Source of the DNA: a virus
Direction: 5' to 3' (one strand)
IMG/VR virus record: IMGVR_UViG_3300012933_000034
Coordinates: 1 to 39,688 of that record
DNA length: 39,688 nt
A model generated the notes under the pieces. That model searched no databases, was not told the origin of the DNA, and saw nothing but the letters and a program-made list of their open reading frames with translations. Of this stretch, positions 1 to 39,688 are shown piece by piece. A program made the position numbers and the translations under genes. Within the stretch, counting starts at the first letter, position 1. Each line of letters opens with the position of its first letter.

Positions 1-1137
1 TCTGATGTTGCGCGTGGCGCTGTGGCTGGTATTTCTGAAGAAGAAAAGACCAAACTTGCCGAAAGAATGCGTAACTTCAAGGCTAATCAAAAGCAAGCCA
101 TTACCAACAATTTTGAACGTATGACTCAAGAAGTTGGTGCTGAAGTTGCCGACCCTACTCAGGCTCGTCAAGTTGGTCGTGTTGTGGATAAAGCCTTGAA
201 TGATGCTTACACCAAGAAATACGACAACTACAAAGCACTTTACAAGCAAGCAGACGAATCAGGTGAGACATTGCAGCCTGTGTCTTATCAGCCGTTGTTA
301 GATGTGATCAACAGCAAAACGCCAACAATGCGTCAGAAACTAGACCCAATTCTAGATTCTGTGGCTGAATCGTTGGCTATGAACGACCCTGAAAAAACAG
401 GGAACATTACTGTTCGTGCTTTGGAAGACATCTACCAACAGATTAACAAAGTCAAAGAATCTCCTAATGCAAGTGAATTGAAAAAGATCATCACGAACAT
501 TGGTGAAGGCGCTGGTGGTGAACTTTATCAAGCCGCTCGTTCTGCTAGAGCGCAATTGGCTAAAGAGTTTGAAGATGTGTCTCGCGTTGACAAGTTGCTA
601 GGCACTAAGGCTGGCTACAAAGACCGCCGAGTTGCTTTGGATGATGTGTTTAAACACGTTGTTTTGGATGGCTCGTTGGAAGAAATGAGAACCGTTACTC
701 AATTGCTGAAAAAGGCTGGACCAGAAGGTCAAAAAGCCTATGCAGAATTGCAAGGTCAGACCATTCAGCACATGAAAGAATTGCTAACAAAAGGCGATCA
801 GTTGTCTTTTAGAAATCTAAACACATTGGTCACCCAATTGGATTCTGAAGATAAATTGGCGTATATGTTTGGCAAAACAGGTCGTGATCAAATCTTGGAT
901 TTGCGTGATGCAATCAAAGATGTGGTGGTCAAAGAGCCTGGCGCGGTGAACTATCCAAACACCGCTGGCGCTGTGCTTCGTGGCTTGGAAACCTTAGAAT
1001 CTATGCGTATTCCAGGCGCTAGTGGTGCTGCTCAATTTGCTAGAACAAAACAAGTTAAAGGCAGAGTTGAGGAAGCATTAAAGCAACCCAACAAATTGGC
1101 TCCTGCTTCATCATCCGTCAATTCTCTTGCCCCATAA
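1..1137 (+). CDS. Ejection/internal virion protein, C-terminal 378 codons (5'-truncated by the window edge; copy of 36223..37359)
   Basis: Frame 1 is open from base 1 to the TAA at 1135-1137. The translation is identical to the C-terminus of the 618-aa ORF 35503..37359. Confidence 0.85.
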   Translation, partial: SDVARGAVAGISEEEKTKLAERMRNFKANQKQAITNNFERMTQEVGAEVADPTQARQVGRVVDKALNDAYTKKYDNYKALYKQADESGETLQPVSYQPLLDVINSKTPTMRQKLDPILDSVAESLAMNDPEKTGNITVRALEDIYQQINKVKESPNASELKKIITNIGEGAGGELYQAARSARAQLAKEFEDVSRVDKLLGTKAGYKDRRVALDDVFKHVVLDGSLEEMRTVTQLLKKAGPEGQKAYAELQGQTIQHMKELLTKGDQLSFRNLNTLVTQLDSEDKLAYMFGKTGRDQILDLRDAIKDVVVKEPGAVNYPNTAGAVLRGLETLESMRIPGASGAAQFARTKQVKGRVEEALKQPNKLAPASSSVNSLAP

Positions 1138-1154
1138 TGTCTCAAGGATAAAAA

Positions 1155-1907
1155 ATGGCATCACTATCACCCCCACCAAAGCTACAGTTCTTCGGAACTG
1201 ATGGTTTGCCTCTTGTTGGTGGCAAGCTGTATACCTATGCGGCTGGCACTACAACGCCATTGGCTACATATGTTGACCATACTGGCACAACAACTAACAC
1301 CAATCCAGTTATTTTGGATTCCAACGGTGAGGCTGATGTTTGGTTGCCCGACACCACTAGCTACAAGTATGTCTTAAAGACATCTGCTGATGTGTTGCTT
1401 TACACGGTTGATTACATTGCAGTACCCGTAACAACCAACTCTTTTGCTTCGCCACCACCAATTGGTAGCGATGTGCCTAATTCTGGCACGTTTACCACAC
1501 TAAACGTCACAGATGCCGCTATCTTTGAAGACACAGCCAACTTCACCGAAGATGTGGAGTTTGATGCTGACGTAACGATTTCAGGCCGCTTGTCTCTCAC
1601 AGGTACAGGCGCTGCAAAGCTCAACGTAGGCACGACAGCCGAACGCCCTGCTTCACCCGTCAACGGTGACATTCGCTACAACAGCTCCACATCCAAGTAC
1701 GAAGGATACAGCGGTAGTTCGTGGGGTCAGTTGGGCGGCGGTGCTACTGGCGGCGGTGCTGACCAAATCTTCAACTTAAACGGTCAAACAGTCACAACCG
1801 ACTACACTATCCCAACAGGCTTTAACGCCAGCACCGTTGGCCCTATCACCATTGCCTCTGGCATCACGGTTACTGTTCCTGATAGCAGCAACTGGGTCAT
1901 CCTCTAA
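1155..1907 (+). CDS. Short tail fibre protein (250 aa)
   Basis: ATG preceded by an AAGGA RBS. The N-terminus (LQFFGTDGLPLVGGKLYTYAAGTTTPLATYVD...NPVILDSNGEADVWL) is a motif I recognise from the anchor domains of podovirus fibres and tailspikes. The protein is Gly/Thr/Ser-rich. The motifs PPPIGSDVPNSGTFTTL and C-terminal GPITIASGITVTVPDSSNWVIL are shared with the 749-aa fibre. Confidence 0.7.
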   Translation: MASLSPPPKLQFFGTDGLPLVGGKLYTYAAGTTTPLATYVDHTGTTTNTNPVILDSNGEADVWLPDTTSYKYVLKTSADVLLYTVDYIAVPVTTNSFASPPPIGSDVPNSGTFTTLNVTDAAIFEDTANFTEDVEFDADVTISGRLSLTGTGAAKLNVGTTAERPASPVNGDIRYNSSTSKYEGYSGSSWGQLGGGATGGGADQIFNLNGQTVTTDYTIPTGFNASTVGPITIASGITVTVPDSSNWVIL

Positions 1908-1916
1908 GGAGTAAAT

Positions 1917-2513
1917 ATGAGTTCTGTTGTTCTTACTGGCGACACATCTGGGGCGGGGACTATCACCGTTCCTGCGGTCGCTGGCACATTCACTGCCACC
2001 ATTGGTTCTGCCACTGGTACTCACTACCCGTTTACTGCTGGCACAGCGGTAGCCTCTACTTCTGGCACTTCAATTGATTTCACTTCAATTCCGTCTTGGG
2101 TAAAGCGTATCACCGTGATGTTTATGGGCGTGTCTACTAGCGGAACATCTCAACTTTTAGTTCGTCTTGGTGATTCAGGCGGTATTGAAACAAGTGGGTA
2201 TGTTGGTACAACAACTCAAATGGCAGATGCAAGTACATCAGCGAACTATTCACACGCTAGTAACAATGGTATTGTTACCGATGGTGGAACTAACGCCGCA
2301 GCTATTAGGTACGGTGCGATTACACTTTCTTTAGCTAATGCTTCAACATATACATGGGTAAGTTCAGGAACAATTGCTCGTTCTGATGCCACCACTTGTT
2401 CTTTTATTGGTGGTTCAAAAGCACTATCTGACACACTCACTCAAGTACGCATCACCGCAGTGAACGGCACAGACACCTTCGACGCTGGTTCTATCAACAT
2501 CTTGTACGAATAA
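1917..2513 (+). CDS. Tandem paralog 1 of 3 (198 aa); putative fibre-tip/receptor-binding protein, family not recognised
   Basis: AAGGAG RBS. Shares TAVASTSGTSIDFTSIPSWVKRITVMF.GVS and the C-terminal RITAVNGTDTFDAGSINILYE with 2709..3293 and 3297..3827. Confidence 0.7.
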   Translation: MSSVVLTGDTSGAGTITVPAVAGTFTATIGSATGTHYPFTAGTAVASTSGTSIDFTSIPSWVKRITVMFMGVSTSGTSQLLVRLGDSGGIETSGYVGTTTQMADASTSANYSHASNNGIVTDGGTNAAAIRYGAITLSLANASTYTWVSSGTIARSDATTCSFIGGSKALSDTLTQVRITAVNGTDTFDAGSINILYE

Positions 2514-2523
2514 AGGAAATATC

Positions 2524-2709
2524 ATGAAACGCATTGAAGTAAACATCGCAACTGGCGAAACAACTGAAGTTGAACTCAGCGCTGAAGAGCAAGCGCAAGC
2601 TCAAGCACAATACGCTGCTTGGGAAATTGAAGAAGCCGCTCGTCTGGTTGCTGTGGCGGCTGAAGAAGCCCGTCAAGCTAAATTTCAAGAGTGGTTGGAG
2701 ACTCAATAA
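2524..2709 (+). CDS. Hypothetical 61-aa Ala/Glu/Gln-rich helical protein (possible fibre assembly factor)
   Basis: AAGGAAATATC-ATG start context, identical to that of gene 34043. The stop overlaps the next start (TAATG). Predicted helical (AEEQAQAQAQYAAWEIEEAARLVAVAAEEARQ). Confidence 0.55.
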   Translation: MKRIEVNIATGETTEVELSAEEQAQAQAQYAAWEIEEAARLVAVAAEEARQAKFQEWLETQ

Positions 2710-3293
2710 TGTCCAGCATCATCAACGCATCAACATCGTCTGGGTTAATCCAGACTGCTGACACCAGTGGAACGCTGGAGTTACAAAGCGGTGGCACGAC
2801 TAAATTTACTGTTAGCTCTACAGGCGCTTATGGTCAAGTCGTGTCTAGCACTGCTGTTGCTTCAACTAGCGGCACAAGCATTGATTTCACCAGCATCCCA
2901 TCATGGGCAAAAAGAATTACTGTGATTTTTAACGGTGTTTCTTTAAACAGCACCAGCAACTTTCTTATCCAACTTGGCGCTGGGTCTGTTACAACGTCTG
3001 GTTATTCGTCTTCTGGCTACGCGTATGGCGGCGCAGCAACATCAACAGCTGGCACAGTAATTATTAGTGGAGCAGCTTCTCGTTTAACAACCGCTAATAC
3101 TGTAATTTGCCTTATTTCTAGCAACACTTGGGTAACTTCTTCTGTCTATGCGGGTGACCCCTCAGCTTCTGGTGGCGGCGTAAGTACAGGAACAATTACT
3201 CTTGGCGGTACTTTAGACCGTGTGCGTATCACAACCGTGAGTGGCACAGACACATTCGATGCAGGCAGCATCAACATCATGTACGAGGGCTAA
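2709..3293 (+). CDS. Tandem paralog 2 of 3 (194 aa from the ATG at 2709)
   Basis: The ATG at 2709 overlaps the upstream TAA. The tracked start at 2691 is an upstream extension. Conserved core TAVASTSGTSIDFTSIPSWAKRITVIFNGVS and C-terminus RVRITTVSGTDTFDAGSINIMYEG. The N-terminus (SGLIQTADTSGTLELQSGGTT) is fibre-like. Confidence 0.7.
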   Translation: MSSIINASTSSGLIQTADTSGTLELQSGGTTKFTVSSTGAYGQVVSSTAVASTSGTSIDFTSIPSWAKRITVIFNGVSLNSTSNFLIQLGAGSVTTSGYSSSGYAYGGAATSTAGTVIISGAASRLTTANTVICLISSNTWVTSSVYAGDPSASGGGVSTGTITLGGTLDRVRITTVSGTDTFDAGSINIMYEG

Positions 3294-3296
3294 ACC

Positions 3297-3827
3297 ATGT
3301 CAGTTGTAATCAACGGCTCCGCAGGGGTCACAACAAACTCAGGTGCTGTGTATAACGGCATCGCTTCTGGCACAGCCGTAGCAAGCACATCTGGCACAAG
3401 CATTGACTTTACGTCTATCCCTTCTTGGGTGAAGCGTATTACTGTGATGTTTAACGGTGTGTCTACAAACGGTAGCAGCCCTGTTAATGTGCAATTGGGT
3501 GATTCAGGGGGTGTTGAAACAACATCTTACACAGGCAGAAGTGCCTTTTTAAATAGCGGCTCTGGTGGCGATGCTGCTAACAGCACTGGTTTTCAAATTT
3601 ATGGCTCTGGTGGTGCATCAAATACAAACAATGGCTCAATGATTATTTCACTTGTTGGGTCAAATATTTGGGTAATGCAAGGTGTTATCTCTGGTTCTAG
3701 CACATCCGTTTGTTGTTTTGTTTCAGGCGCTAAAACCCTATCAGACACTCTTGACCGCGTTCGCATTACAACGGTTGGCGGCACAGACACCTTTGACGCT
3801 GGTTCAATTAACATTCTTTACGAGTAA
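3297..3827 (+). CDS. Tandem paralog 3 of 3 (176 aa)
   Basis: Same conserved N-core and C-terminal RVRITTVGGTDTFDAGSINILYE. The central ~60 aa are unrelated to the other two paralogs. Confidence 0.7.
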   Translation: MSVVINGSAGVTTNSGAVYNGIASGTAVASTSGTSIDFTSIPSWVKRITVMFNGVSTNGSSPVNVQLGDSGGVETTSYTGRSAFLNSGSGGDAANSTGFQIYGSGGASNTNNGSMIISLVGSNIWVMQGVISGSSTSVCCFVSGAKTLSDTLDRVRITTVGGTDTFDAGSINILYE

Positions 3828-14590: not shown

Positions 14591-14804
14591 AATCATTGAG
14601 ATGGCTAGACAGGCTGGTGCTGTTAGCGGAAAACCAACGCCAGATGCGCCTGAGATTGTTTTTACACAATGTTTAGACATTTACCGCTTTGCCAAACTGG
14701 TAGCAGCTAAAGAGCGTGAGGCGTGTGCAAAGTTGTGTGAAAAAGATGACTCAATGCGTTGGAGTGGTGCTGCTGACGCAATCCGAGCAAGAGGTGAAAC
14801 ATGA
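14577..14804 (+). CDS. Hypothetical 75-aa protein
   Basis: In the operon frame. FAKLVAAKEREACAKLCE...IRARG is a recurrent small phage protein pattern. Confidence 0.6.
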   Translation: MKQDEIIEMARQAGAVSGKPTPDAPEIVFTQCLDIYRFAKLVAAKEREACAKLCEKDDSMRWSGAADAIRARGET

Positions 14805-15262
14805 GAAAGCAATGTAAGCGCAAGGTTTGGTCAACCAACATCAACCCAATAGCCCATGCAATCTCAGGAGCATCCATTTCTGACAAGCAATCATTGGACA
14901 AACTGAGGCTTTGTGAGTTATCAGCCATTGACGCAATGACCAAGGGCATGGGAACGACAGAAGATTGGCGCTGGCTGGCTGACGTTATCAACATTGCCGA
15001 AACAATGGGAAAGTCAGGGATTGGTCCTGAAGTCCTGCCATATTGTCAAGAAGCTCAGACTGCCATGCTGGAATGTGCCAAACGCTATCAAGAAACCAAG
15101 AAAATGGGCTTATCAGGCGCAGGAATCAAGGCAATTCATGATGTTTGGGAGTTTCACGACCTTCAGAGGACAAGCATTCCACGGTCAGAATACGAAAAAA
15201 TGATTCGTAAGACAGCGAATCACATCAAGAGCAAGGGTAAAGACGTTGTGGAGATAGCATGA
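14801..15262 (+). CDS. Hypothetical 153-aa protein (conserved prophage family, function unknown)
   Basis: NPIAHAISGASI...LDKLRLCELSAIDAM...GIGPEVL...FHDLQRTSIPRSEYEKMI recurs in proteobacterial prophage nin-like regions. Confidence 0.65.
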   Translation: MRKQCKRKVWSTNINPIAHAISGASISDKQSLDKLRLCELSAIDAMTKGMGTTEDWRWLADVINIAETMGKSGIGPEVLPYCQEAQTAMLECAKRYQETKKMGLSGAGIKAIHDVWEFHDLQRTSIPRSEYEKMIRKTANHIKSKGKDVVEIA

Positions 15263-15591
15263 AAGCCTATAAATCGTTTTATTTTGAAGCCGCGCATTCA
15301 TTGCCAGACAATCCTGCCGTTCACGGCCATTCGTACCGTGTGACGTTATGGTTTGCCACAAGTGCTGAAAATCCTGTAAGTTTGTCAGGAATTGAAAAGG
15401 TTGAATGGCAAGTTAAGCGGATTGTTGACCACAGGATGCTCAATGACTTCATGCCAGACCCAACAATGGAGTCAATTTCCGAATATTTGAGCAATTACGC
15501 CCGTCAGATCATTGACGCACAGCGTATTCAGGTGGAATTCTTGGGTGTAGACGTAGACCGCGCATCCATTAACTTTGGGATAACGACATGA
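15259..15591 (+). CDS. queD: QueD/PTPS-like T-fold protein (110 aa) lacking the catalytic Cys loop
   Basis: FYFEAAHSLP...VHGHSY and DHRMLND match the QueD motifs FTFEAAHRLP...CGRLHGHSF and DHHYLND. About 6 residues containing the catalytic Cys are absent. Confidence 0.65.
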   Translation: MKAYKSFYFEAAHSLPDNPAVHGHSYRVTLWFATSAENPVSLSGIEKVEWQVKRIVDHRMLNDFMPDPTMESISEYLSNYARQIIDAQRIQVEFLGVDVDRASINFGITT

Positions 15592-16325
15592 TTCACTATC
15601 ACGGACTACCAATTACTCCAGCAACTGCCGCTGCCAAGGCAATAGATGCAGGACACGCATTCGTTTCTTTTGCCCATGCTGATCAACTTGGGGTAGCAAT
15701 CGAGGTTTGTCAGTCTTTTGCGATTGATAACGGGGCTTTCTCGGCATGGAAAAGCGGAAAACCAGTTGAAGATTGGACTGCTTTTTACGATTGGGCGCTA
15801 AACCTAAAGAAAGTGCCATCTTGTGACTTTGCCGTCATTCCTGATGTGATTGACGGAACGGAAGCTGACAACGATGCGCTTTTGCGTGATTGCCCATTGC
15901 CAACATGGTTTGGCGCTCCCGTGTGGCATATGCACGAAAGCCTAGAACGCCTAGAACAGTTGGCAAACACCTATGTTCGGGTCTGCATTGGTAGTTCTGG
16001 GGAGTTTTCAACAGTTGGAAGTCAAGCCTGGTGGTCAAGAATCGGACAAGCCATGAGGATTCTTTGTGATGAGCAAGGTAGACCCATGTGCAAACTTCAC
16101 GGATTGAGGATGCTTGACCCTGCCGTGTTCACCAAATTGCCGTTTGCATCCGCTGACAGCACAAATATTGGCAGAAACGTAGGGATAGACAACAACTGGA
16201 AGGTTGGGAACTATCTACCGCCCACAAAGGAAATGAGAGCCGCAGTTATGCGTTCTCGCATTGAATCCCATAACGCACCAGCCGTTTGGGGCTTTCACCA
16301 AGTAGAGCAAGGACTTTTGCTGTGA
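15588..16325 (+). CDS. dpdA: TGT-fold, DpdA-like putative DNA (7-deazaguanine) transglycosylase (245 aa)
   Basis: The motif order IDNGAF, IPDVIDG, KLHGLRM, SADSTN parallels TGT TDSGGF, FDE, LMGVG/LFGIG, FDC/S. ATGA-coupled to the queD-like gene. The assignment rests on by-eye motif matching only. Confidence 0.45.
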   Translation: MIHYHGLPITPATAAAKAIDAGHAFVSFAHADQLGVAIEVCQSFAIDNGAFSAWKSGKPVEDWTAFYDWALNLKKVPSCDFAVIPDVIDGTEADNDALLRDCPLPTWFGAPVWHMHESLERLEQLANTYVRVCIGSSGEFSTVGSQAWWSRIGQAMRILCDEQGRPMCKLHGLRMLDPAVFTKLPFASADSTNIGRNVGIDNNWKVGNYLPPTKEMRAAVMRSRIESHNAPAVWGFHQVEQGLLL

Positions 16326-16624
16326 TGATTCCTAAGTTCAACTACTTTCGTAGCAAAGCCCACCTAAAGAACGTAGCAAGCCTAGCCTGTCAGAACTGTG
16401 GAATGGAAGGACAGACACAAGCAGCGCATTCAAACTGGGCAGAGCATGGAAAGGGAAGAGGAATCAAAGCAAGCGACATATTCACAGCCGCCTTATGTCA
16501 GACTTGCCATGCAGAACTAGACCAAGGCCAACATCTGAGCAAAGAACAGAGAAGGCAAATGTGGGATGAAGCCTACAAAAGAACAAAGCAAAGGCTAAAG
16601 GATGAAGGTAAATGGATTGAGTAA
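16325..16624 (+). CDS. DUF1364 (YbcO-like) putative nuclease (99 aa)
   Basis: FRSKAHLKNVASLACQNCGMEGQTQAAHSNW...GIKASDIFTAALCQTCHAELDQG matches the DUF1364 Cys/His pattern. Start at the ATG at 16325. Confidence 0.65.
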   Translation: MIPKFNYFRSKAHLKNVASLACQNCGMEGQTQAAHSNWAEHGKGRGIKASDIFTAALCQTCHAELDQGQHLSKEQRRQMWDEAYKRTKQRLKDEGKWIE

Positions 16625-16816: not shown

Positions 16817-17362
16817 ATGGAAAACGCAGTTGATTACACGCATAAAAGTATCGAATCGGAGCAATCTGAGAAGCTGCCTCGCATCTTGAAGATGGGAAGG
16901 CCAGTTATCTTTCCGATTGAGAACCCTGTCTGGAAGCAGATCGCTGAAGGCATAAGCGCAGGCAAGAGCCTAACTAGCGTCTTGAAGGCTGAGGGAATGC
17001 CAAGCTACTCGATGGCTAGGAACATGATCAACAACAGCGCTGAGTTCAGAGCCATGTACGACAAGGCTGTGGAAGACAGGGCTGATAAGCTGGCAGAGGA
17101 GATCATTGAGCTATCAGACGCAGAGATGCCTGAAGGTCTGAAAGGACCAGAGGCTAGTGCTTGGGTACAGCAGAAGAGACTCCAGGTGGATGCAAGGAAG
17201 TGGGTAGCAAGTAAGTTGAAGCCAAGAACGTATGGCGATAAGATTGACGTAAGCGTTACAGACGCTAGGATTAGTGTCATTGACGCTATCACCGAGGCTC
17301 AATCAAGGGTAACATTCGACAAGTCCACAGCCACAGATGTCACGCCAAAGCCTACAGAATGA
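16817..17362 (+). CDS. terS: Terminase small subunit (181 aa)
   Basis: HTH-like IAEGISAGKSLTSVLKAEGMPSYSMARNMI, then RADKLAEEIIELSD and QVDARKWVASKLKPRTYGDK, a typical TerS pattern. Directly upstream of terL. Confidence 0.8.
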   Translation: MENAVDYTHKSIESEQSEKLPRILKMGRPVIFPIENPVWKQIAEGISAGKSLTSVLKAEGMPSYSMARNMINNSAEFRAMYDKAVEDRADKLAEEIIELSDAEMPEGLKGPEASAWVQQKRLQVDARKWVASKLKPRTYGDKIDVSVTDARISVIDAITEAQSRVTFDKSTATDVTPKPTE

Positions 17363-17488: not shown

Positions 17489-19012
17489 ATGCAAACTCCA
17501 ATTTATAAGTCTGAAGAAGAACAAAAGCTAATGGTGGAGCTGTGGTCGCCTGCGATTGCAGATGACCCTGAAGCCTTTGTCCTCTTCGCCTTCCCTTGGG
17601 GTCAAAAAAACACGCCTTTGGCTAACTTCAGCGGCCCAAGAAAGTGGCAACGCGAGGTTTTGCGGGAGATTACCGCCCATATCAAGAAGCAAAAAGGGCT
17701 TATTGACTACGAAACCATCCGCATGGCTGTCTCATCTGGTCGCGGTATCGGTAAATCGGCTTTGGTTTCTTGGCTTATTCTTTGGATGCTGACCACAAGG
17801 ATTGGCGGCTCGGTGGTGGTTTCGGCTAACAGCGAAAACCAATTGCGCTCAGTCACATGGGCTGAATTGACAAAATGGGCGGCTATGCTTATCAATTCGC
17901 ATTGGTGGGAAGTATCAGCGACTAAGTTGACCCCTGCTAAGTGGCTGACTGACCTTGTAGAACGTGATTTGAAGAAAGGTACGCGCTATTGGGCGTGTGA
18001 AGGCAAGCTGTGGAGCGCCGAAAACCCTGATTCTTACGCTGGTGTCCACAACCAAGACGGCATGATGCTGATTTTTGACGAATCTAGCGGTATTCCTAAC
18101 CCGATTTGGGAAGTTGGCGCAGGCTTCTTTACAGAAAACAGCCCAGACCGCTATTGGTTTGCGTTTTCCAACCCCCGTAGGAACGAAGGTTACTTTTTTG
18201 AGTGCTTCCATGCCAAACGGGACTTTTGGACATCAAAAATCGTTGATGCTCGCACTGTTGAGGACACAGACAAGTCAATTTACGAGCAAATCATTGCCGA
18301 ATATGGCGAAGACAGCTCTCAGGCCAAGGTTGAGGTCTACGGAGAGTTCCCATCTGCGGGTGAAGACCAATTCATTTCGCCCATGATCGTGGATGACGCT
18401 ATGAAGCGCCCAAAATGGAAGGACTTAACCGCCCCAACCATCGTGGGTGTTGACCCTGCCCGTGGTGGCGCTGACTCTACAGTGATTGCGGTGCGTCAAG
18501 GCCGAGACATTGTGTCCATCAAACGCTACAAAGGCGAAGATACGATGGAAATCGTGGGTCGGGTGATTGAAGCGATTGAAGAATTCAAGCCTACCCTAAC
18601 GGTGATTGACGAAGGCGGTTTGGGGTACGGAATTTTGGACCGCTTGACCGAACAACGCTACAAAGTGCGTGGCGTAAACTTTGGAAACAAGGCAAAACAT
18701 CCACAAGCCTTTGGAAATAAACGCGCCGAGATGTGGAATGATATGAGGAACTGGCTAAAATCTGCTAGTATTCCCACAGATCGACAATTGAAAGCCGACT
18801 TAACTGGGCCGACAAAAAAGCCCAATTCGTCTGGAACTATATTCTTGGAAGGCAAAAAAGAGATGAAAGCCCGTGGCCTTGCTTCTCCTGACGCAGCCGA
18901 TGCTATCGCTGTGACATTTGCTTTCCCTGTGGCTCATAGGTCTTACACAGAAGTTGCTCGGCGCATTGTGTCTGAGCGCAGTTCAGTTCAAACAGGATGG
19001 ATGGGCAGTTAA
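17489..19012 (+). CDS. terL: Terminase large subunit (507 aa)
   Basis: Walker A-like SSGRGIGKSALVS, a Walker B-like MMLIFDESSGI, and a C-terminal nuclease region (VGVDPARGGADSTVIAV). Size and position match P22 gp2. Confidence 0.9.
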   Translation: MQTPIYKSEEEQKLMVELWSPAIADDPEAFVLFAFPWGQKNTPLANFSGPRKWQREVLREITAHIKKQKGLIDYETIRMAVSSGRGIGKSALVSWLILWMLTTRIGGSVVVSANSENQLRSVTWAELTKWAAMLINSHWWEVSATKLTPAKWLTDLVERDLKKGTRYWACEGKLWSAENPDSYAGVHNQDGMMLIFDESSGIPNPIWEVGAGFFTENSPDRYWFAFSNPRRNEGYFFECFHAKRDFWTSKIVDARTVEDTDKSIYEQIIAEYGEDSSQAKVEVYGEFPSAGEDQFISPMIVDDAMKRPKWKDLTAPTIVGVDPARGGADSTVIAVRQGRDIVSIKRYKGEDTMEIVGRVIEAIEEFKPTLTVIDEGGLGYGILDRLTEQRYKVRGVNFGNKAKHPQAFGNKRAEMWNDMRNWLKSASIPTDRQLKADLTGPTKKPNSSGTIFLEGKKEMKARGLASPDAADAIAVTFAFPVAHRSYTEVARRIVSERSSVQTGWMGS

Positions 19013-19025
19013 TGCCAACGAAATA

Positions 19026-19271
19026 ATGACCCTAAAAGCACTAAAAGACTGCGTTATCATTGAGCGCGACATTGAAAAGCATGAATTATTTGTGCTTCCC
19101 CCTGGCGACCCAATGGAAACAGGCATTGTTGTAGCCGTTGGACCTGACTGCAAAGACATTAAGGTTGGCGACCACCTTTATTTTGGCGTTGGGCAAGAAT
19201 TTACACATGAGAAGCATGACTACATTGTTATGCGTGAGCCTCATGTAACTGGAGTTTTGGAACATGGCTGA
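19026..19271 (+). CDS. groES: GroES/Cpn10-like co-chaperonin (81 aa) with a shortened mobile loop
   Basis: LKALKDCVIIER, GIVVAVGPD, IKVGDHLYF and YIVMREPHVTGVLE align with E. coli GroES IRPLHDRVIVKR, GEVLAVGNG, VKVGDIVIF and VLIMSESDILAIVE. Confidence 0.7.
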   Translation: MTLKALKDCVIIERDIEKHELFVLPPGDPMETGIVVAVGPDCKDIKVGDHLYFGVGQEFTHEKHDYIVMREPHVTGVLEHG

Positions 19272-31591: not shown

Positions 31592-32460
31592 CAGTCGTAA
31601 TCTTGACCTATTGCGAGCATCCTGCGTTAGCGTATGGAGCTTTGATGGTGTTCAAGACTTTGCGTGTTGGCTTCCCTACTGCTGATGTAATAGTCATTGA
31701 TAACGGCAGTCACCCAGATGTCGTGCCATTGATTGCACAAGCCGCCACAGATGCTGGTTGCTCGTTTACAGCCGCCTCTAGACAGCATTTCCTGAGTTTC
31801 TATCATTGGGTCTTGTTTGAACAAGAGGTGATGAATTCTGTAGTCTTACTTGACCCTGACGTTGTGTTTTGGGAAAACGTAGAAGATTGGAAGTTTGATG
31901 GCTTGATGGCTGGCAGACTAATTCCTGACCTTTACAACTATGGCGTGACTTCATTGTCTAGGTTGCATCCTAGCCATTTGTGGATTCCTGACGTTGCCAA
32001 GATGCGAGAATCTTTGGGGAACGTGAAAGCCAATGGATTTGACCCATTGCGTCAGTTTTCAGCGCCAGCCAATGGGAAGATGTACTTTTGGGACACAGGC
32101 GCAGGCTTATATCAAGCCTTGGCAGACAAATGTGAATCGTTTACAGAAGAGCAACTAGATTGCTATGACCATCTGTTTTATGGTTCTCATCTGCCTGTTA
32201 TCCAGCCAGCCTTAAATGACGAAGGCGTAACCTATACAGCCCATCAAGCCGCTGCTAGTGGTGATTTATCTTCTCTGAAAGGCATTTGGCGTGAGCAAGA
32301 TAAGCATTTCAAGTCACAACGACAAGACCCGTTAAATGGTGAAACTTTGTTGGCAAAAATGATTGAGACTTGCACTGTTCTTGGTCAAGCACAAGGTGTT
32401 GAAGATGGATATAGTGAAGCCGTAGATGGCTTGATTAGCAACATAAAGGCGCAACTATGA
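31588..32460 (+). CDS. Putative GT-A-fold glycosyltransferase-like protein (290 aa)
   Basis: TTG start overlapping the upstream TGA. TVVILTY...ADVIVIDNGS and VVLLDPDVVFWE (DxD) fit a GT2-like Rossmann N-domain. The assignment is tentative. Confidence 0.4.
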   Translation: MTVVILTYCEHPALAYGALMVFKTLRVGFPTADVIVIDNGSHPDVVPLIAQAATDAGCSFTAASRQHFLSFYHWVLFEQEVMNSVVLLDPDVVFWENVEDWKFDGLMAGRLIPDLYNYGVTSLSRLHPSHLWIPDVAKMRESLGNVKANGFDPLRQFSAPANGKMYFWDTGAGLYQALADKCESFTEEQLDCYDHLFYGSHLPVIQPALNDEGVTYTAHQAAASGDLSSLKGIWREQDKHFKSQRQDPLNGETLLAKMIETCTVLGQAQGVEDGYSEAVDGLISNIKAQL

Positions 32461-33335
32461 GCGATTTAGTTGTCCATGAAGAACTAGCGCCATTGGCTTT
32501 AAAAGAACTAATGTCTTTGTATAACCCAGAGCAAGCAATGTTGCAACTCCCACAAGCAGAATGCTCTGTAGTTCACCATTTTGGACCTGGCGTGTGCATC
32601 CGTGAGGTTTTCATGCCTGCTGGAACATTGGCTATTGGTCACAAGCAGAAGTTTGAGCATCTGAATGTCATGTTGCGTGGCAAGGTAATGATTGTCAATG
32701 ATGACGGTCAAATGCAAACTTTGACTGCCCCTATGATTTTTACAGGCAAAGCTGGAAGAAAGATAGGTTATGTCTTAGAAGACATGGTTTGGCAGAATAT
32801 CTATGCTACCGACCTAAAAGATGCTGATGCTGTGGAAGCCTTGTTTGTAGAGAAAAGCGAAGATTGGCATGATGACCAAGCGCACAAATTTGCGGTGGAA
32901 AGTGTGGCAAGAATTCCTGACAAACAAGATTATGAAGCGTTGCTTCAAGAATGCGGCATTTCCCATGAAGTTGCTAGACAGCAATCTGAGAACGAAGAAG
33001 ATCAGATTTGGATTGACAACACGGTCACCCGTGTGGCACAGTCACCAATAGAAGGCAAAGGTTTGTTTGCAACGTCTGATATAAAGGCACATCAAGTCAT
33101 TTGTGAAGCTAGAATAGGCGGTAAAAGAACCCAAAGTGGTCGTTTTACCAATCATTCTATGTTTCCAAACGCAAAAATGGTCATGTTGCCAAATGGAGAC
33201 ATTGATTTAGTTGCATTAACCGACATTGAAGGTTGCAAAGGTGGTGGCATGGGAACTGAAATCACAATTGATTATCGTCAGGCGCTTTCATTGTCTGGCA
33301 TTGAGTTTACAAAGGAATCGCTATGTCAGCAGTAG
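32457..33335 (+). CDS. Fusion protein: N-terminal cupin-like barrel plus C-terminal minimal SET-domain methyltransferase (292 aa)
   Basis: C-terminal ~105 aa: SPIEGKGLFATSDIKAHQVICEA (GxG), GRFTNHSMFPNAKM (NHSxxPN) and GTEITIDY (ELTxDY) occur in canonical SET order. N-terminal: VVHHFGPGVCIREVFMPAGTLAIGHKQKFEHLNVMLRGKVMIV. Confidence 0.65.
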   Translation: MSDLVVHEELAPLALKELMSLYNPEQAMLQLPQAECSVVHHFGPGVCIREVFMPAGTLAIGHKQKFEHLNVMLRGKVMIVNDDGQMQTLTAPMIFTGKAGRKIGYVLEDMVWQNIYATDLKDADAVEALFVEKSEDWHDDQAHKFAVESVARIPDKQDYEALLQECGISHEVARQQSENEEDQIWIDNTVTRVAQSPIEGKGLFATSDIKAHQVICEARIGGKRTQSGRFTNHSMFPNAKMVMLPNGDIDLVALTDIEGCKGGGMGTEITIDYRQALSLSGIEFTKESLCQQ

Positions 33336-35502: not shown

Positions 35503-37359
35503 ATGGCAACGCTTGTTGAGTTTCGCGCTCAGTATCCACAATACAACGAAGTGCCAGATTTGGCATTGGCTAACTCTTTGCATGAAAAGTTTTATGCAGA
35601 TATGCCAAAGGCTGATTTTTTCAAGTCAATCTCGCTAAGCCCTGCCGCTTTTATACCTGACAACGCAAACATGATTACTCTGCCAAAAACAGCGCCATCA
35701 ATGCAAGATCGGGTAATGGGTGTTGTTGAGGCTCCAGCCATCATTGCTGGTAATGTTGGTCGTGCGATTGCTGCGCCAGTTGCCCAAATGTTTGGTGAAG
35801 CTGTTGCAGGCTATGGCACTCCACAAGGCAAAGCCGCTGGTCAACAAGCCGCACAAACAGTTAGCCAACAGTTTTATCAGCCTCGCACAGAAACTGGACA
35901 AGAGATTGTTAAGGGCGTTGGCGATTTCTTAGGTGCTATTCCACCAACGCCATTGTCTAGCGCTGGTACTGCTTTAAGCACATTGGCTGGCCCTGCGGCT
36001 AACCAACTGCGCTCTGTCGTTGTTCCTGCTACCCGTCAAGCCATTGCGCCTGCCGCCAACGCTTTGGCTAAAGTGGTTCAACGTGAAGAAACCCCTGTAA
36101 TGCAAGGCATGGGCGCTGCTCAGACATCTGATCAATTGATGCGTGAAGAACGCCTACAACGTCTTGGCATTCCTGCTACGGCTGGTGAACGCAATAAGTC
36201 TTTGGCTCAACAACAGTTTGAATCTGATGTTGCGCGTGGCGCTGTGGCTGGTATTTCTGAAGAAGAAAAGACCAAACTTGCCGAAAGAATGCGTAACTTC
36301 AAGGCTAATCAAAAGCAAGCCATTACCAACAATTTTGAACGTATGACTCAAGAAGTTGGTGCTGAAGTTGCCGACCCTACTCAGGCTCGTCAAGTTGGTC
36401 GTGTTGTGGATAAAGCCTTGAATGATGCTTACACCAAGAAATACGACAACTACAAAGCACTTTACAAGCAAGCAGACGAATCAGGTGAGACATTGCAGCC
36501 TGTGTCTTATCAGCCGTTGTTAGATGTGATCAACAGCAAAACGCCAACAATGCGTCAGAAACTAGACCCAATTCTAGATTCTGTGGCTGAATCGTTGGCT
36601 ATGAACGACCCTGAAAAAACAGGGAACATTACTGTTCGTGCTTTGGAAGACATCTACCAACAGATTAACAAAGTCAAAGAATCTCCTAATGCAAGTGAAT
36701 TGAAAAAGATCATCACGAACATTGGTGAAGGCGCTGGTGGTGAACTTTATCAAGCCGCTCGTTCTGCTAGAGCGCAATTGGCTAAAGAGTTTGAAGATGT
36801 GTCTCGCGTTGACAAGTTGCTAGGCACTAAGGCTGGCTACAAAGACCGCCGAGTTGCTTTGGATGATGTGTTTAAACACGTTGTTTTGGATGGCTCGTTG
36901 GAAGAAATGAGAACCGTTACTCAATTGCTGAAAAAGGCTGGACCAGAAGGTCAAAAAGCCTATGCAGAATTGCAAGGTCAGACCATTCAGCACATGAAAG
37001 AATTGCTAACAAAAGGCGATCAGTTGTCTTTTAGAAATCTAAACACATTGGTCACCCAATTGGATTCTGAAGATAAATTGGCGTATATGTTTGGCAAAAC
37101 AGGTCGTGATCAAATCTTGGATTTGCGTGATGCAATCAAAGATGTGGTGGTCAAAGAGCCTGGCGCGGTGAACTATCCAAACACCGCTGGCGCTGTGCTT
37201 CGTGGCTTGGAAACCTTAGAATCTATGCGTATTCCAGGCGCTAGTGGTGCTGCTCAATTTGCTAGAACAAAACAAGTTAAAGGCAGAGTTGAGGAAGCAT
37301 TAAAGCAACCCAACAAATTGGCTCCTGCTTCATCATCCGTCAATTCTCTTGCCCCATAA
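35503..37359 (+). CDS. Ejection protein, P22 gp16 position and size (618 aa)
   Basis: Order and length parallel P22 gp16 (609 aa). Ala/Gln-rich N-terminal half. Full-length copy of the gene truncated at base 1. Confidence 0.6.
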   Translation: MATLVEFRAQYPQYNEVPDLALANSLHEKFYADMPKADFFKSISLSPAAFIPDNANMITLPKTAPSMQDRVMGVVEAPAIIAGNVGRAIAAPVAQMFGEAVAGYGTPQGKAAGQQAAQTVSQQFYQPRTETGQEIVKGVGDFLGAIPPTPLSSAGTALSTLAGPAANQLRSVVVPATRQAIAPAANALAKVVQREETPVMQGMGAAQTSDQLMREERLQRLGIPATAGERNKSLAQQQFESDVARGAVAGISEEEKTKLAERMRNFKANQKQAITNNFERMTQEVGAEVADPTQARQVGRVVDKALNDAYTKKYDNYKALYKQADESGETLQPVSYQPLLDVINSKTPTMRQKLDPILDSVAESLAMNDPEKTGNITVRALEDIYQQINKVKESPNASELKKIITNIGEGAGGELYQAARSARAQLAKEFEDVSRVDKLLGTKAGYKDRRVALDDVFKHVVLDGSLEEMRTVTQLLKKAGPEGQKAYAELQGQTIQHMKELLTKGDQLSFRNLNTLVTQLDSEDKLAYMFGKTGRDQILDLRDAIKDVVVKEPGAVNYPNTAGAVLRGLETLESMRIPGASGAAQFARTKQVKGRVEEALKQPNKLAPASSSVNSLAP

Positions 37360-37376
37360 TGTCTCAAGGATAAAAA

Positions 37377-38129
37377 ATGGCATCACTATCACCCCCACCA
37401 AAGCTACAGTTCTTCGGAACTGATGGTTTGCCTCTTGTTGGTGGCAAGCTGTATACCTATGCGGCTGGCACTACAACGCCATTGGCTACATATGTTGACC
37501 ATACTGGCACAACAACTAACACCAATCCAGTTATTTTGGATTCCAACGGTGAGGCTGATGTTTGGTTGCCCGACACCACTAGCTACAAGTATGTCTTAAA
37601 GACATCTGCTGATGTGTTGCTTTACACGGTTGATTACATTGCAGTACCCGTAACAACCAACTCTTTTGCTTCGCCACCACCAATTGGTAGCGATGTGCCT
37701 AATTCTGGCACGTTTACCACACTAAACGTCACAGATGCCGCTATCTTTGAAGACACAGCCAACTTCACCGAAGATGTGGAGTTTGATGCTGACGTAACGA
37801 TTTCAGGCCGCTTGTCTCTCACAGGTACAGGCGCTGCAAAGCTCAACGTAGGCACGACAGCCGAACGCCCTGCTTCACCCGTCAACGGTGACATTCGCTA
37901 CAACAGCTCCACATCCAAGTACGAAGGATACAGCGGTAGTTCGTGGGGTCAGTTGGGCGGCGGTGCTACTGGCGGCGGTGCTGACCAAATCTTCAACTTA
38001 AACGGTCAAACAGTCACAACCGACTACACTATCCCAACAGGCTTTAACGCCAGCACCGTTGGCCCTATCACCATTGCCTCTGGCATCACGGTTACTGTTC
38101 CTGATAGCAGCAACTGGGTCATCCTCTAA
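37377..38129 (+). CDS. Short tail fibre protein (second copy of 1155..1907)
   Basis: Identical translation at offset +36222. Confidence 0.7.
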   Translation: MASLSPPPKLQFFGTDGLPLVGGKLYTYAAGTTTPLATYVDHTGTTTNTNPVILDSNGEADVWLPDTTSYKYVLKTSADVLLYTVDYIAVPVTTNSFASPPPIGSDVPNSGTFTTLNVTDAAIFEDTANFTEDVEFDADVTISGRLSLTGTGAAKLNVGTTAERPASPVNGDIRYNSSTSKYEGYSGSSWGQLGGGATGGGADQIFNLNGQTVTTDYTIPTGFNASTVGPITIASGITVTVPDSSNWVIL

Positions 38130-38138
38130 GGAGTAAAT

Positions 38139-38735
38139 ATGAGTTCTGTTGTTCTTACTGGCGACACATCTGGGGCGGGGACTATCACCGTTCCTGCGGT
38201 CGCTGGCACATTCACTGCCACCATTGGTTCTGCCACTGGTACTCACTACCCGTTTACTGCTGGCACAGCGGTAGCCTCTACTTCTGGCACTTCAATTGAT
38301 TTCACTTCAATTCCGTCTTGGGTAAAGCGTATCACCGTGATGTTTATGGGCGTGTCTACTAGCGGAACATCTCAACTTTTAGTTCGTCTTGGTGATTCAG
38401 GCGGTATTGAAACAAGTGGGTATGTTGGTACAACAACTCAAATGGCAGATGCAAGTACATCAGCGAACTATTCACACGCTAGTAACAATGGTATTGTTAC
38501 CGATGGTGGAACTAACGCCGCAGCTATTAGGTACGGTGCGATTACACTTTCTTTAGCTAATGCTTCAACATATACATGGGTAAGTTCAGGAACAATTGCT
38601 CGTTCTGATGCCACCACTTGTTCTTTTATTGGTGGTTCAAAAGCACTATCTGACACACTCACTCAAGTACGCATCACCGCAGTGAACGGCACAGACACCT
38701 TCGACGCTGGTTCTATCAACATCTTGTACGAATAA
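38139..38735 (+). CDS. Tandem paralog 1 (second copy of 1917..2513)
   Basis: Identical translation at offset +36222. Confidence 0.7.
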   Translation: MSSVVLTGDTSGAGTITVPAVAGTFTATIGSATGTHYPFTAGTAVASTSGTSIDFTSIPSWVKRITVMFMGVSTSGTSQLLVRLGDSGGIETSGYVGTTTQMADASTSANYSHASNNGIVTDGGTNAAAIRYGAITLSLANASTYTWVSSGTIARSDATTCSFIGGSKALSDTLTQVRITAVNGTDTFDAGSINILYE

Positions 38736-38745
38736 AGGAAATATC

Positions 38746-38931
38746 ATGAAACGCATTGAAGTAAACATCGCAACTGGCGAAACAACTGAAGTTGAACTCA
38801 GCGCTGAAGAGCAAGCGCAAGCTCAAGCACAATACGCTGCTTGGGAAATTGAAGAAGCCGCTCGTCTGGTTGCTGTGGCGGCTGAAGAAGCCCGTCAAGC
38901 TAAATTTCAAGAGTGGTTGGAGACTCAATAA
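38746..38931 (+). CDS. 61-aa Ala/Glu-rich protein (second copy of 2524..2709)
   Basis: Identical translation at offset +36222. Confidence 0.55.
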   Translation: MKRIEVNIATGETTEVELSAEEQAQAQAQYAAWEIEEAARLVAVAAEEARQAKFQEWLETQ

Positions 38932-39515
38932 TGTCCAGCATCATCAACGCATCAACATCGTCTGGGTTAATCCAGACTGCTGACACCAGTGGAACGCTGG
39001 AGTTACAAAGCGGTGGCACGACTAAATTTACTGTTAGCTCTACAGGCGCTTATGGTCAAGTCGTGTCTAGCACTGCTGTTGCTTCAACTAGCGGCACAAG
39101 CATTGATTTCACCAGCATCCCATCATGGGCAAAAAGAATTACTGTGATTTTTAACGGTGTTTCTTTAAACAGCACCAGCAACTTTCTTATCCAACTTGGC
39201 GCTGGGTCTGTTACAACGTCTGGTTATTCGTCTTCTGGCTACGCGTATGGCGGCGCAGCAACATCAACAGCTGGCACAGTAATTATTAGTGGAGCAGCTT
39301 CTCGTTTAACAACCGCTAATACTGTAATTTGCCTTATTTCTAGCAACACTTGGGTAACTTCTTCTGTCTATGCGGGTGACCCCTCAGCTTCTGGTGGCGG
39401 CGTAAGTACAGGAACAATTACTCTTGGCGGTACTTTAGACCGTGTGCGTATCACAACCGTGAGTGGCACAGACACATTCGATGCAGGCAGCATCAACATC
39501 ATGTACGAGGGCTAA
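38931..39515 (+). CDS. Tandem paralog 2 (second copy of 2709..3293)
   Basis: Identical translation at offset +36222. Confidence 0.7.
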   Translation: MSSIINASTSSGLIQTADTSGTLELQSGGTTKFTVSSTGAYGQVVSSTAVASTSGTSIDFTSIPSWAKRITVIFNGVSLNSTSNFLIQLGAGSVTTSGYSSSGYAYGGAATSTAGTVIISGAASRLTTANTVICLISSNTWVTSSVYAGDPSASGGGVSTGTITLGGTLDRVRITTVSGTDTFDAGSINIMYEG

Positions 39516-39518
39516 ACC

Positions 39519-39688
39519 ATGTCAGTTGTAATCAACGGCTCCGCAGGGGTCACAACAAACTCAGGTGCTGTGTATAACGGCATCGCTTCTGGCACAGCCG
39601 TAGCAAGCACATCTGGCACAAGCATTGACTTTACGTCTATCCCTTCTTGGGTGAAGCGTATTACTGTGATGTTTAACGGTGTGTCTAC
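39519..39688 (+). CDS. Tandem paralog 3, 5' fragment cut by the window end (copy of 3297..3466)
   Basis: Nucleotides identical to 3297..3466 where checked. Runs off the window. Confidence 0.7.
   Translation, partial: MSVVINGSAGVTTNSGAVYNGIASGTAVASTSGTSIDFTSIPSWVKRITVMFNGVS

Follow-up and report, generated by a model that had tools for sequence, protein, structure and literature searches.

A cysteine-free QueD-family gene translationally coupled to a singleton-type dpdA in an uncultured P22-like phage: a candidate partial-pathway module for DNA 7-deazaguanine modification

The DNA 7-deazaguanine transglycosylase DpdA of phage 9g has been validated experimentally. It was demonstrated to insert 7-cyano-7-deazaguanine (preQ0) into DNA in Escherichia coli, and it acts on DNA without complementing a tgt deletion. 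Other phages encode DpdA as the only gene of this kind. One of these DpdA-only phages is Salmonella phage 7-11, in which 2'-deoxy-7-amido-7-deazaguanosine (dADG) was measured at about 0.02% of G (PMC6884629). Among the 6-pyruvoyltetrahydropterin synthase (PTPS) family, to which the preQ0-pathway enzyme QueD belongs, QueD is recognized by the motif CxxxHGH, PTPS-III by ExxHGH, QueD2 by Cx4HGH and PTPS-II by Cx5HGH (PMC5041015, PMC9894224), and Asp70-His71 are part of the catalytic triad of E. coli QueD (PMC9894224). DpdL of Cellulophaga phage phiST, a QueD paralogue without the cysteine, has been proposed to be a decarboxylase of 7-carboxy-7-deazaguanine (CDG) (PMC10516641). Here we describe a locus at positions 15259 to 16325 of the IMG/VR virus record IMGVR_UViG_3300012933_000034 (39,688 nucleotides, the whole of which is called the window below), where a gene for a 110-residue, cysteine-free QueD-like protein is coupled to a gene for a 245-residue DpdA. 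The pair may form a module that combines host-made precursors with a boost to a single step of their synthesis.

All features are on the plus strand unless stated otherwise. The open reading frame (ORF) of the QueD/PTPS-family protein (15259..15591, the "type A" partner below) and that of the DpdA-family protein (15588..16325) share an ATGA stop/start overlap at 15588..15591, as read from the sequence and as already described in an initial sequence-only reading of the window. According to the results of sequence comparison, the 245-residue protein is a member of the phage DpdA family and falls in the DpdA-only group of 7-11, HK106 and SfI, also referred to as the singleton type. It matched PHROG 887 ("queuine tRNA-ribosyltransferase") over residues 1 to 230 with an E value of 1e-68, and it was 34% identical to gp032 of phage 7-11 (BLASTP, E 7e-36), with four motifs conserved. 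These are FAIDNGAFSAW (residues 44 to 54), VIPDVIDG (83 to 90), KLHGLRM (169 to 175) and SADSTN (188 to 193). When the profile of its family was aligned with the 9g DpdA by hhalign, the probability was 95.3% (E 2e-8), and FAIDNGAFSAW was paired with IFLDSGAFSAY, KLHGLRM with KVHGFGI and FASADST with WYSCDSS. The sequence-only reading had proposed a protein related to tRNA-guanine transglycosylase (TGT) and DpdA on the basis of the four motifs; all four are present, three of them align with motifs of the 9g enzyme, and the assignment to the DpdA family held in the comparisons with PHROG 887, 7-11 gp032, the 9g DpdA and the BFVD models. In the same alignment, D47 (codon 15726..15728), in the DNGAF motif, corresponds to the Asp of DSGAF, and D190 (codon 16155..16157), in the SADST motif, lies in the segment aligned to SCDSS. 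Both residues are invariant in the family alignment (A7), 7-11 gp032 included. By analogy with TGT enzymes, D190 is a candidate catalytic nucleophile.

A tblastn search with the 245-residue protein returned 110 phage records, among them HK106, SfI, SEN1, SE131 and the Vibrio phages Athena1 and 1.201.B. An Acinetobacter phage DpdA was 65% identical to that of the window, and the matches overlap the "DpdA only" entries that Hutinet et al. 2019 give in their Supplementary Data 1 (PMC6884629). In an AlphaFold2 model of the protein, with a mean predicted local distance difference test (pLDDT) score of 81.5, strands and helices alternate in a beta/alpha pattern, and a Foldseek search of BFVD with this model found phage "queuine tRNA-ribosyltransferase" models, with template modeling (TM) scores of 0.5 to 0.64 and E values from 5e-9 to 1e-5. 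The gene is under strong purifying selection, with a ratio of nonsynonymous to synonymous substitution rates (dN/dS) of about 0.04. No match was found in Pfam or NCBIfam, and sequence and profile searches of the PDB reached no solved structure. The Pfam TGT family PF01702, which had been suggested as a check on the DpdA assignment, was among the families without a match. This carries no weight against the DpdA identity, because the validated 9g DpdA also lacks a Pfam match, and that check was therefore unusable.

We next consider the 110-residue protein, which we can call a QueD-like T-fold with confidence. The Pfam family PTPS (PF01242), the other family named for checking, matched it at 43.5 bits (E 3.8e-11), well above the gathering score of 22.4. 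Its AlphaFold2 model had a pLDDT of 97.6, and the best PDB match of the model was E. coli QueD (4NTK/3QNA) at a TM score of 0.75. The protein retains H13, H22-G-H24 and D57-H58-x-x-L-N-D, in the form DHRMLND. The zinc-ligand segment from H13 to H24 (codons 15295..15330) reads AAH-SLPDNPAV-HGH, and D57-H58 (codons 15427..15432) are the counterpart of Asp70-His71 in the catalytic triad of E. coli QueD. The 6-residue loop that carries the cysteine in QueD is absent between P19 and V21. HMMER alignment to the QueD proteins of Pseudomonas aeruginosa (2oba) and E. coli (4ntk) left a 6-residue gap over the "..EGHKCGR" loop, and MAFFT agreed. The zinc pattern without its catalytic cysteine loop, first seen by eye, was thus borne out. 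Neither this pattern nor the gene coupling and the DpdA motifs can be put down to chance. Where QueD has CxxxHGH, the protein has N-P-A-V-H-G-H, and it has zero cysteines anywhere, so that no intact catalytic cysteine lies elsewhere in the sequence, a case that the sequence-only reading had allowed for. A catalytic cysteine relocated to the C terminus was also considered and rejected, the window protein and its Limnobacter relatives being alike in having no cysteine at all. The residues at positions -3 to -6 from HGH are P, N, D and P, and the signatures of PTPS-III, QueD2 and PTPS-II are all absent.

The residues that remain are under constraint. Among 92 members of the cysteine-less clade described below (alignment A5), H13, H22, G23, H24, H58 and E71 were invariant, and S25, Y26, D57, L61, N62, T69 and R101 were conserved in at least 90%; in another alignment of the clade, R101 was invariant as well. 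Against relatives with 94 to 95% identity, the gene had a dN/dS of about 0.09. Because of this ratio and the retention of the clade-invariant residues, we conclude that the gene is not decaying. A tblastn search with the 110-residue protein against 50,697 phage records gave no match, and no close relative was found in GTDB genomes.

The same two genes stand together in other viral genomes. The close relatives of the 110-residue protein (about ten known, 58 to 95% identity) are all encoded immediately upstream of a 245-residue DpdA. In an unrelated 52-kb phage carrying DUF669, helicase and methylase genes (L014), a 39%-identical partner precedes a 66%-identical DpdA. We collected 80 viral contigs in which the identity of DpdA to that of the window was 80% or more; 74 of them had enough flanking sequence to be judged. 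A PTPS gene was adjacent to dpdA in 16 of the 74, and in none of these 16 did it have the cysteine motif. The type A gene lay upstream of dpdA in two contigs, and a second form, type B, lay immediately downstream in 14. Type B proteins have a long loop with Ser in the place of the cysteine and a C terminus of ...VERKASGDKC; no QueE, QueC or FolE was found within 6 kb of the type B loci examined. Further partner types were seen next to DpdA (L186 to L188). In one viral contig (L183), a DpdA of the window type is followed by QueE and then by a PTPS, and in three others (P0316, L184 and L185), a PTPS of the clade follows QueE. This recurrent, independently assembled juxtaposition indicates that DpdA and the PTPS-family protein share one pathway. 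The sequence-only reading had supposed that the two-gene arrangement would be unusual. It is a minority state, as the counts indicate, and not a one-off, since the cultured Caulobacter phage DMCA carries the same pair (see below).

Two apparent examples were discarded. Arthrobacter phage Sonali was rejected as a two-gene case on finding the full pathway in its genome, and gp031 of phage 7-11 (111 residues, beside dpdA) was considered as a hidden PTPS and had no hidden Markov model (HMM) match. Two contigs showed additional features around dpdA. In L005 (5813-6765), where DpdA is 95% identical and was called with a 9-residue N-terminal extension, a 72-residue ORF stands between NinB and dpdA where the PTPS gene would be expected; it may be what is left of the partner gene, or it may have replaced it. 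In L052 (10378-11226), a contig with DpdA and a type B PTPS, matches to PARP and ART-PolyVal ADP-ribosyltransferases were found about 3.6 kb downstream.

Cysteine-less proteins of this kind occur outside phages as well. An exhaustive HMMER scan of 1.84 billion representative sequences gave 141 matches at an E value of at most 1e-3, the best-scoring of which have the short cysteine-free loop, and a profile search recovered 698 proteins. In all 24 Limnobacter/Burkholderiales genomes found (L100 to L123), a cysteine-free protein of 116 residues, 39 to 43% identical to that of the window, is encoded directly after queE, its gene starting at the QueE stop codon. The QueE next to the clade PTPS is a genuine member of its family by NCBIfam TIGR04508, with 317 to 338 bits against a cut-off of 240. 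A queE-PTPS pair is likewise present in one Rhodanobacteraceae genome, and clade members of the Caulobacteraceae type come after queC-queE. Canonical CxxxHGH proteins from the same scan (Sporomusa, actinomycetes and archaea) occupy equivalent positions. No DpdA is encoded near the bacterial clade members. Judged from these loci, loss of the cysteine is the mark of a whole PTPS clade whose bacterial members hold the queD slot of queE and queC operons, and not, as had been supposed at the outset, a trait of a lone phage gene. Besides L100 to L123, the bacterial loci with a PTPS lacking the CxxxHGH cysteine in the queD position comprise L018, L145, L148, L159 and L173. A match in Salmonella houtenae was set aside as merely the chromosomal queD.

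We therefore weighed what the pair might do. The reading that we prefer, at a probability of about 0.5, is that it is a partial-pathway anti-restriction module, in which DpdA uses a preQ0-type base of the host and the partner is a cysteine-independent synthase of 6-carboxytetrahydropterin (CPH4) that boosts the committed step. The module would be an accessory of a temperate-type P22-like phage. DpdA would be a minimal transglycosylase of the TGT superfamily that, after replication, swaps some guanines of the phage DNA for a 7-deazaguanine; the inserted base would be preQ0, possibly ending as the deoxynucleoside dPreQ0 or as dADG. It would be supplied largely by the queuosine pathway of the host, since FolE, QueE and QueC are missing from the phage: none of the three was detected by Pfam and PHROGs among the ORFs of the window that were scanned, which represent a genome of about 36.2 kb. 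This agrees with the proposal of host-made precursors in the sequence-only reading. The partner most likely converts dihydroneopterin triphosphate to CPH4, which is the QueD step. As this step is the committed one, the partner would direct pterin derived from GTP toward preQ0 while the phage multiplies. Its mechanism would be based on zinc and Asp-His, without the canonical CxxxHGH cysteine, and it would be of a type used by some Proteobacteria and acquired as an auxiliary gene. The QueD step is suggested by the positions of clade members in bacterial operons and by the DpdA-QueE-PTPS run. Since a near-identical DpdA occurs alone, the partner would be an optional enhancer and not a subunit. 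Homology, residue conservation, purifying selection, the coupling of the two genes and their repeated co-occurrence are observed, and the DNA substrate, the inserted base and the CPH4-synthase activity are inferred. At the outset, the cysteine-less protein had been given two possible roles, a boost to the pathway or a different T-fold reaction; the queD-slot position of its clade favors the former and makes the latter less probable.

Several results weigh against this reading, both of the partner and of the DpdA. The CxxxHGH cysteine has been described as required for QueD catalysis (PMC9894224, PMC10516641), and it is reported to be essential in E. coli QueD and in QueD2 (PMC9894224). The protein scored 38.3 bits with the NCBIfam equivalog model of QueD, TIGR03367, for which the cut-off is 89.25; the sole clade member scanned that exceeded this cut-off was the Rhodanobacteraceae protein, at 91.4 bits. 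The 110-residue protein has also lost the Glu of the K-E-T motif. In T-fold enzymes, this Glu is the pterin anchor. At the position of the canonical QueD K/R-E-T, the window has R101-A102-S103 (codons 15559..15567), and most clade members have R followed by P, G, A or K. A conserved Glu eight residues past R101 was entertained as a relocated anchor and dropped, because the window has Thr there and several Limnobacter species have Val. A second, canonical QueD may exist elsewhere in the Limnobacter and Caulobacter genomes, and no assay of any member of the cysteine-less clade was found in the searchable literature. Among the evaluable contigs, 58 of the 74 had no PTPS partner, and one of the loci without it (L020) has a DpdA 98% identical to that of the window, so the partner is dispensable. 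As for DpdA, the Foldseek search of the PDB with the 245-residue model returned generic TIM barrels and no TGT, and hhalign of the family profile against E. coli Tgt gave nothing. The tie to the TGT superfamily is therefore only transitive, via phage DpdA. Finally, Mycobacterium phage Orion encodes DpdA and has unmodified DNA (PMC6884629).

The loss of both the catalytic cysteine and the K-E-T Glu, together with the score below the QueD equivalog cut-off, would also be expected if the 110-residue protein had been neofunctionalized. In this alternative, the main one, it would bind or modify CDG or preQ0 from the host pathway, for example by decarboxylating it, the reaction proposed for DpdL, or by hydrating the nitrile to the amide with the help of zinc, and DpdA would insert a base other than preQ0. 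DpdL provides the precedent of a cysteine-less QueD paralogue with a proposed decarboxylase role. All 16 PTPS genes beside close DpdA homologues lack the cysteine motif, no canonical QueD being among them, and the dADG of phage 7-11, which has DpdA only, has no explained source. However, the protein has no similarity to DpdL and has HGH rather than LxxxHRHxF, and phage 7-11 has no PTPS-like gene near dpdA (no hmmsearch match, L019). Moreover, the cysteine-less relatives occupy the queD slot of bacterial operons of housekeeping type (queE and queC-queE), with no DpdA nearby, the phage protein retains all the residues invariant in these bacterial relatives, and the DpdA-QueE-PTPS run of L183 fits the supply of the QueE substrate. 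We regard such a tailoring role as possible and, on this evidence, unlikely. A more far-reaching reading is that the cysteine-less PTPS proteins beside this DpdA are not QueD isozymes and represent a new zinc-dependent T-fold activity, which would make or tailor a 7-deazaguanine or pterin-derived base other than preQ0 and lead to an undescribed DNA modification or route; this seems to us rather improbable.

A further alternative is that the phage DNA is not modified at all, DpdA being inactive or acting on host tRNA or host DNA and the QueD-like gene being an unrelated metabolic moron. Orion, with its DpdA and no modification, and 7-11, with only about 0.02% of G modified, are in line with this, and the phage is uncultured and known only as a sequence. 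On the other side, the dN/dS of DpdA (about 0.04) reflects strong purifying selection, the Asp residues of its catalytic motifs are invariant, and the 9g DpdA acts on DNA without complementing tgt. That DpdA has come to lie beside PTPS or QueE repeatedly and independently also argues for a shared pathway. Taken together, these points make the absence of modification quite improbable. Very improbable, finally, is a non-catalytic partner, whether a T-fold binder that delivers a pterin or 7-deazaguanine to DpdA or a regulator or stabilizer of DpdA: the tight translational coupling, the loss of the canonical cysteine and Glu and the faster evolution of the partner (39% identity between the window and L014, compared with 66% for DpdA; dN/dS of 0.09 compared with 0.04) would suit it, but a mere binder would not need the zinc ligands and Asp-His that are invariant across the clade, a near-identical DpdA exists without the partner, which is thus not an obligate subunit, and coupling in the bacterial relatives is to QueE rather than DpdA.

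The pair is embedded in a longer series of overlapping genes. Upstream, an ORF of 153 residues (14801..15262; phrog_20828, of unknown function) ends in an ATGA on the start of the PTPS-like gene. It lies outside the conserved module, since relatives have NinB (L002) or another ORF (L013) in its place. Downstream, the ATG of a DUF968/HNH-type gene (16325..16624) at 16325 overlaps the dpdA stop codon in the sequence TGATG. Its product matched Pfam DUF968 at 36.2 bits and the HNH endonuclease family phrog_131 with an E value of 1.6e-29; we consider it operon context only. From the arrangement of starts and stops, the stretch from the 153-residue ORF through the DUF968/HNH gene reads as one translationally coupled run. 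The gene for the terminase small subunit begins at 16817, about 190 bp past the end of this run, so that the earlier description of the pair as lying at the end of the early/middle operon is a fair one.

The window appears to hold a complete genome. Positions 1 to 3466 are repeated at 36223 to 39688, with a period of 36,222, and 100% identity was verified over the first 300 bases. The ORFs at 1155-3293 are found again at 37377-39515, and the matching sets of ORFs point to a repeat that continues beyond the verified 300 bases. Given this end-to-end repeat, the window represents one circular or circularly permuted phage genome of about 36.2 kb that was read past its start. This is a P22-like genome of freshwater type; according to Pfam and PHROGs, it contains lysis genes, a replication protein and NinB among others. 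An Erf/exonuclease recombination block is on the minus strand, and the late genes comprise those for the small and large terminase subunits, a P22-type portal, the major head protein and tail proteins. The gene pair lies between NinB and the terminase genes, with the DUF968/HNH gene intervening before the terminase. The portal is 74% identical to that of Phage DSL-LC05, whose stated host is "Gammaproteobacteria", and 69% identical to those of freshwater Manatee Spring phages. No nucleotide-level relative of the region was found by megablast among the 50,697 phage records, and the window has no tRNA genes.

Three other features of the genome were observed in passing. A 292-residue ORF at 32457-33335, in the tail/structural block, matched the Pfam family SET (PF00856) over residues 227 to 273, with 29.7 bits (gathering score 22.4). 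Protein lysine methyltransferase domains of the SET type are unusual in a phage structural module, and the protein could be an ejected effector. Three consecutive ORFs of 176 to 200 residues each (1917-2513, 2691-3293 and 3297-3827) all matched the C-terminal 145 or so residues of phrog_29482, a family of unknown function, and look like tandem paralogous cassettes of tail fibers or receptor-binding proteins. Between the genes of the large terminase subunit and the portal, an ORF of 117 residues (18918-19271) is possibly a phage GroES-like gene; Phage DSL-LC05 carries the annotation "co-chaperonin GroES" at the equivalent place, and a faint Cpn10 match was seen in the neighbor of a relative.

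The DpdA of the window is a new member of a known family. For the combination of DpdA with a single non-canonical QueD-family gene, and for cysteine-less QueD proteins, no discussion was found in the searchable literature. Our results indicate that "DpdA-only" phages are not all alike, as a sizeable minority of this DpdA lineage adds one pathway gene, and occasionally QueE as well. They suggest gradations between phages that depend entirely on the host and phages that are fully autonomous, with the committed QueD step as the one worth boosting. Should the proteins of the clade prove to be active CPH4 synthases, the signature CxxxHGH, by which QueD is called, would not be universal, and QueD chemistry could proceed in the absence of a cysteine considered essential; both annotation and mechanism would be affected. 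The bacterial proteins without the cysteine in the queD slot challenge the accepted QueD signature independently of the phage. If the partner has a new activity instead, it could mark an undescribed DNA base.

How, then, does the locus compare with described systems? Among the nearest are the DpdA-only phages (7-11 gp032, HK106, SfI, SEN1 and Vibrio phage Athena1; PMC6884629), whose DpdA proteins belong to the same family and have 234 to 245 residues. In the lambdoid and P22-like members of this group, dpdA lies in the nin-type region, as it does in the window. The DpdA-only phages are listed with no gene of the preQ0 pathway, whereas the window and about a fifth of its close relatives have a PTPS gene in the operon, and no phage is listed with DpdA and QueD only in the table of 182 phages of Hutinet et al. 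2019. With 9g and CAjan (DpdA1), the locus shares a homologous transglycosylase and the placement of precursor genes beside dpdA. However, the 9g DpdA has 317 residues and is too distant from the 245-residue protein for BLAST, and 9g has a full FolE-QueD-QueE-QueC(Gat) cluster with a QueD that contains the canonical cysteine, whereas the window has one non-canonical pathway gene.

Like QueD (PTPS-I, 6-carboxytetrahydropterin synthase; E. coli 4NTK), the 110-residue protein has the T-fold, three His zinc ligands, the Asp-His pair and the PTxE motif. It differs in lacking the CxxxHGH cysteine and the Glu of K-E-T and in having a loop shorter by 6 residues. Like DpdL, it is a phage protein of the QueD family that has lost the catalytic cysteine and accompanies a DpdA. 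However, DpdL has the motif LxxxHRHxF where the window has NPAVHGHSY, and DpdL co-occurs with FolE, QueD, QueE and DpdA3, none of which is in the window. An identity with DpdL was rejected, BLASTP against CGPG_00067 of phiST giving an E value of 2.4 and the motif being absent. An identity of the 245-residue protein with DpdA3 was rejected as well.

The same overlapping PTPS-DpdA architecture is found in a cultured temperate phage, Caulobacter phage DMCA (PQ480021.1), as the genes DMCA_035c and DMCA_034c. DMCA_035c encodes 98 residues and overlaps the start of DMCA_034c; it is annotated as "6-carboxytetrahydropterin synthase" and has no cysteine in the loop. Its product is very divergent from the PTPS of the window, the alignment being limited to the AH...HGHSY..W segment. 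DMCA_034c (L189, 5285-6010), annotated as "hypothetical protein", is 35% identical to the DpdA of the window (E 1e-32) and contains the motifs LDNGAFSKW, VIPDVIGG and FASVDST. No other que gene is annotated in the DMCA genome. The DMCA pair lies near the integrase gene, whereas that of the window lies in the nin region. Three DNA methyltransferases and a GcrA-like regulator are also among the DMCA gene products. As DMCA is in culture and its host, Caulobacter vibrioides CB15, is a model bacterium, the proposed function is directly testable with this pair.

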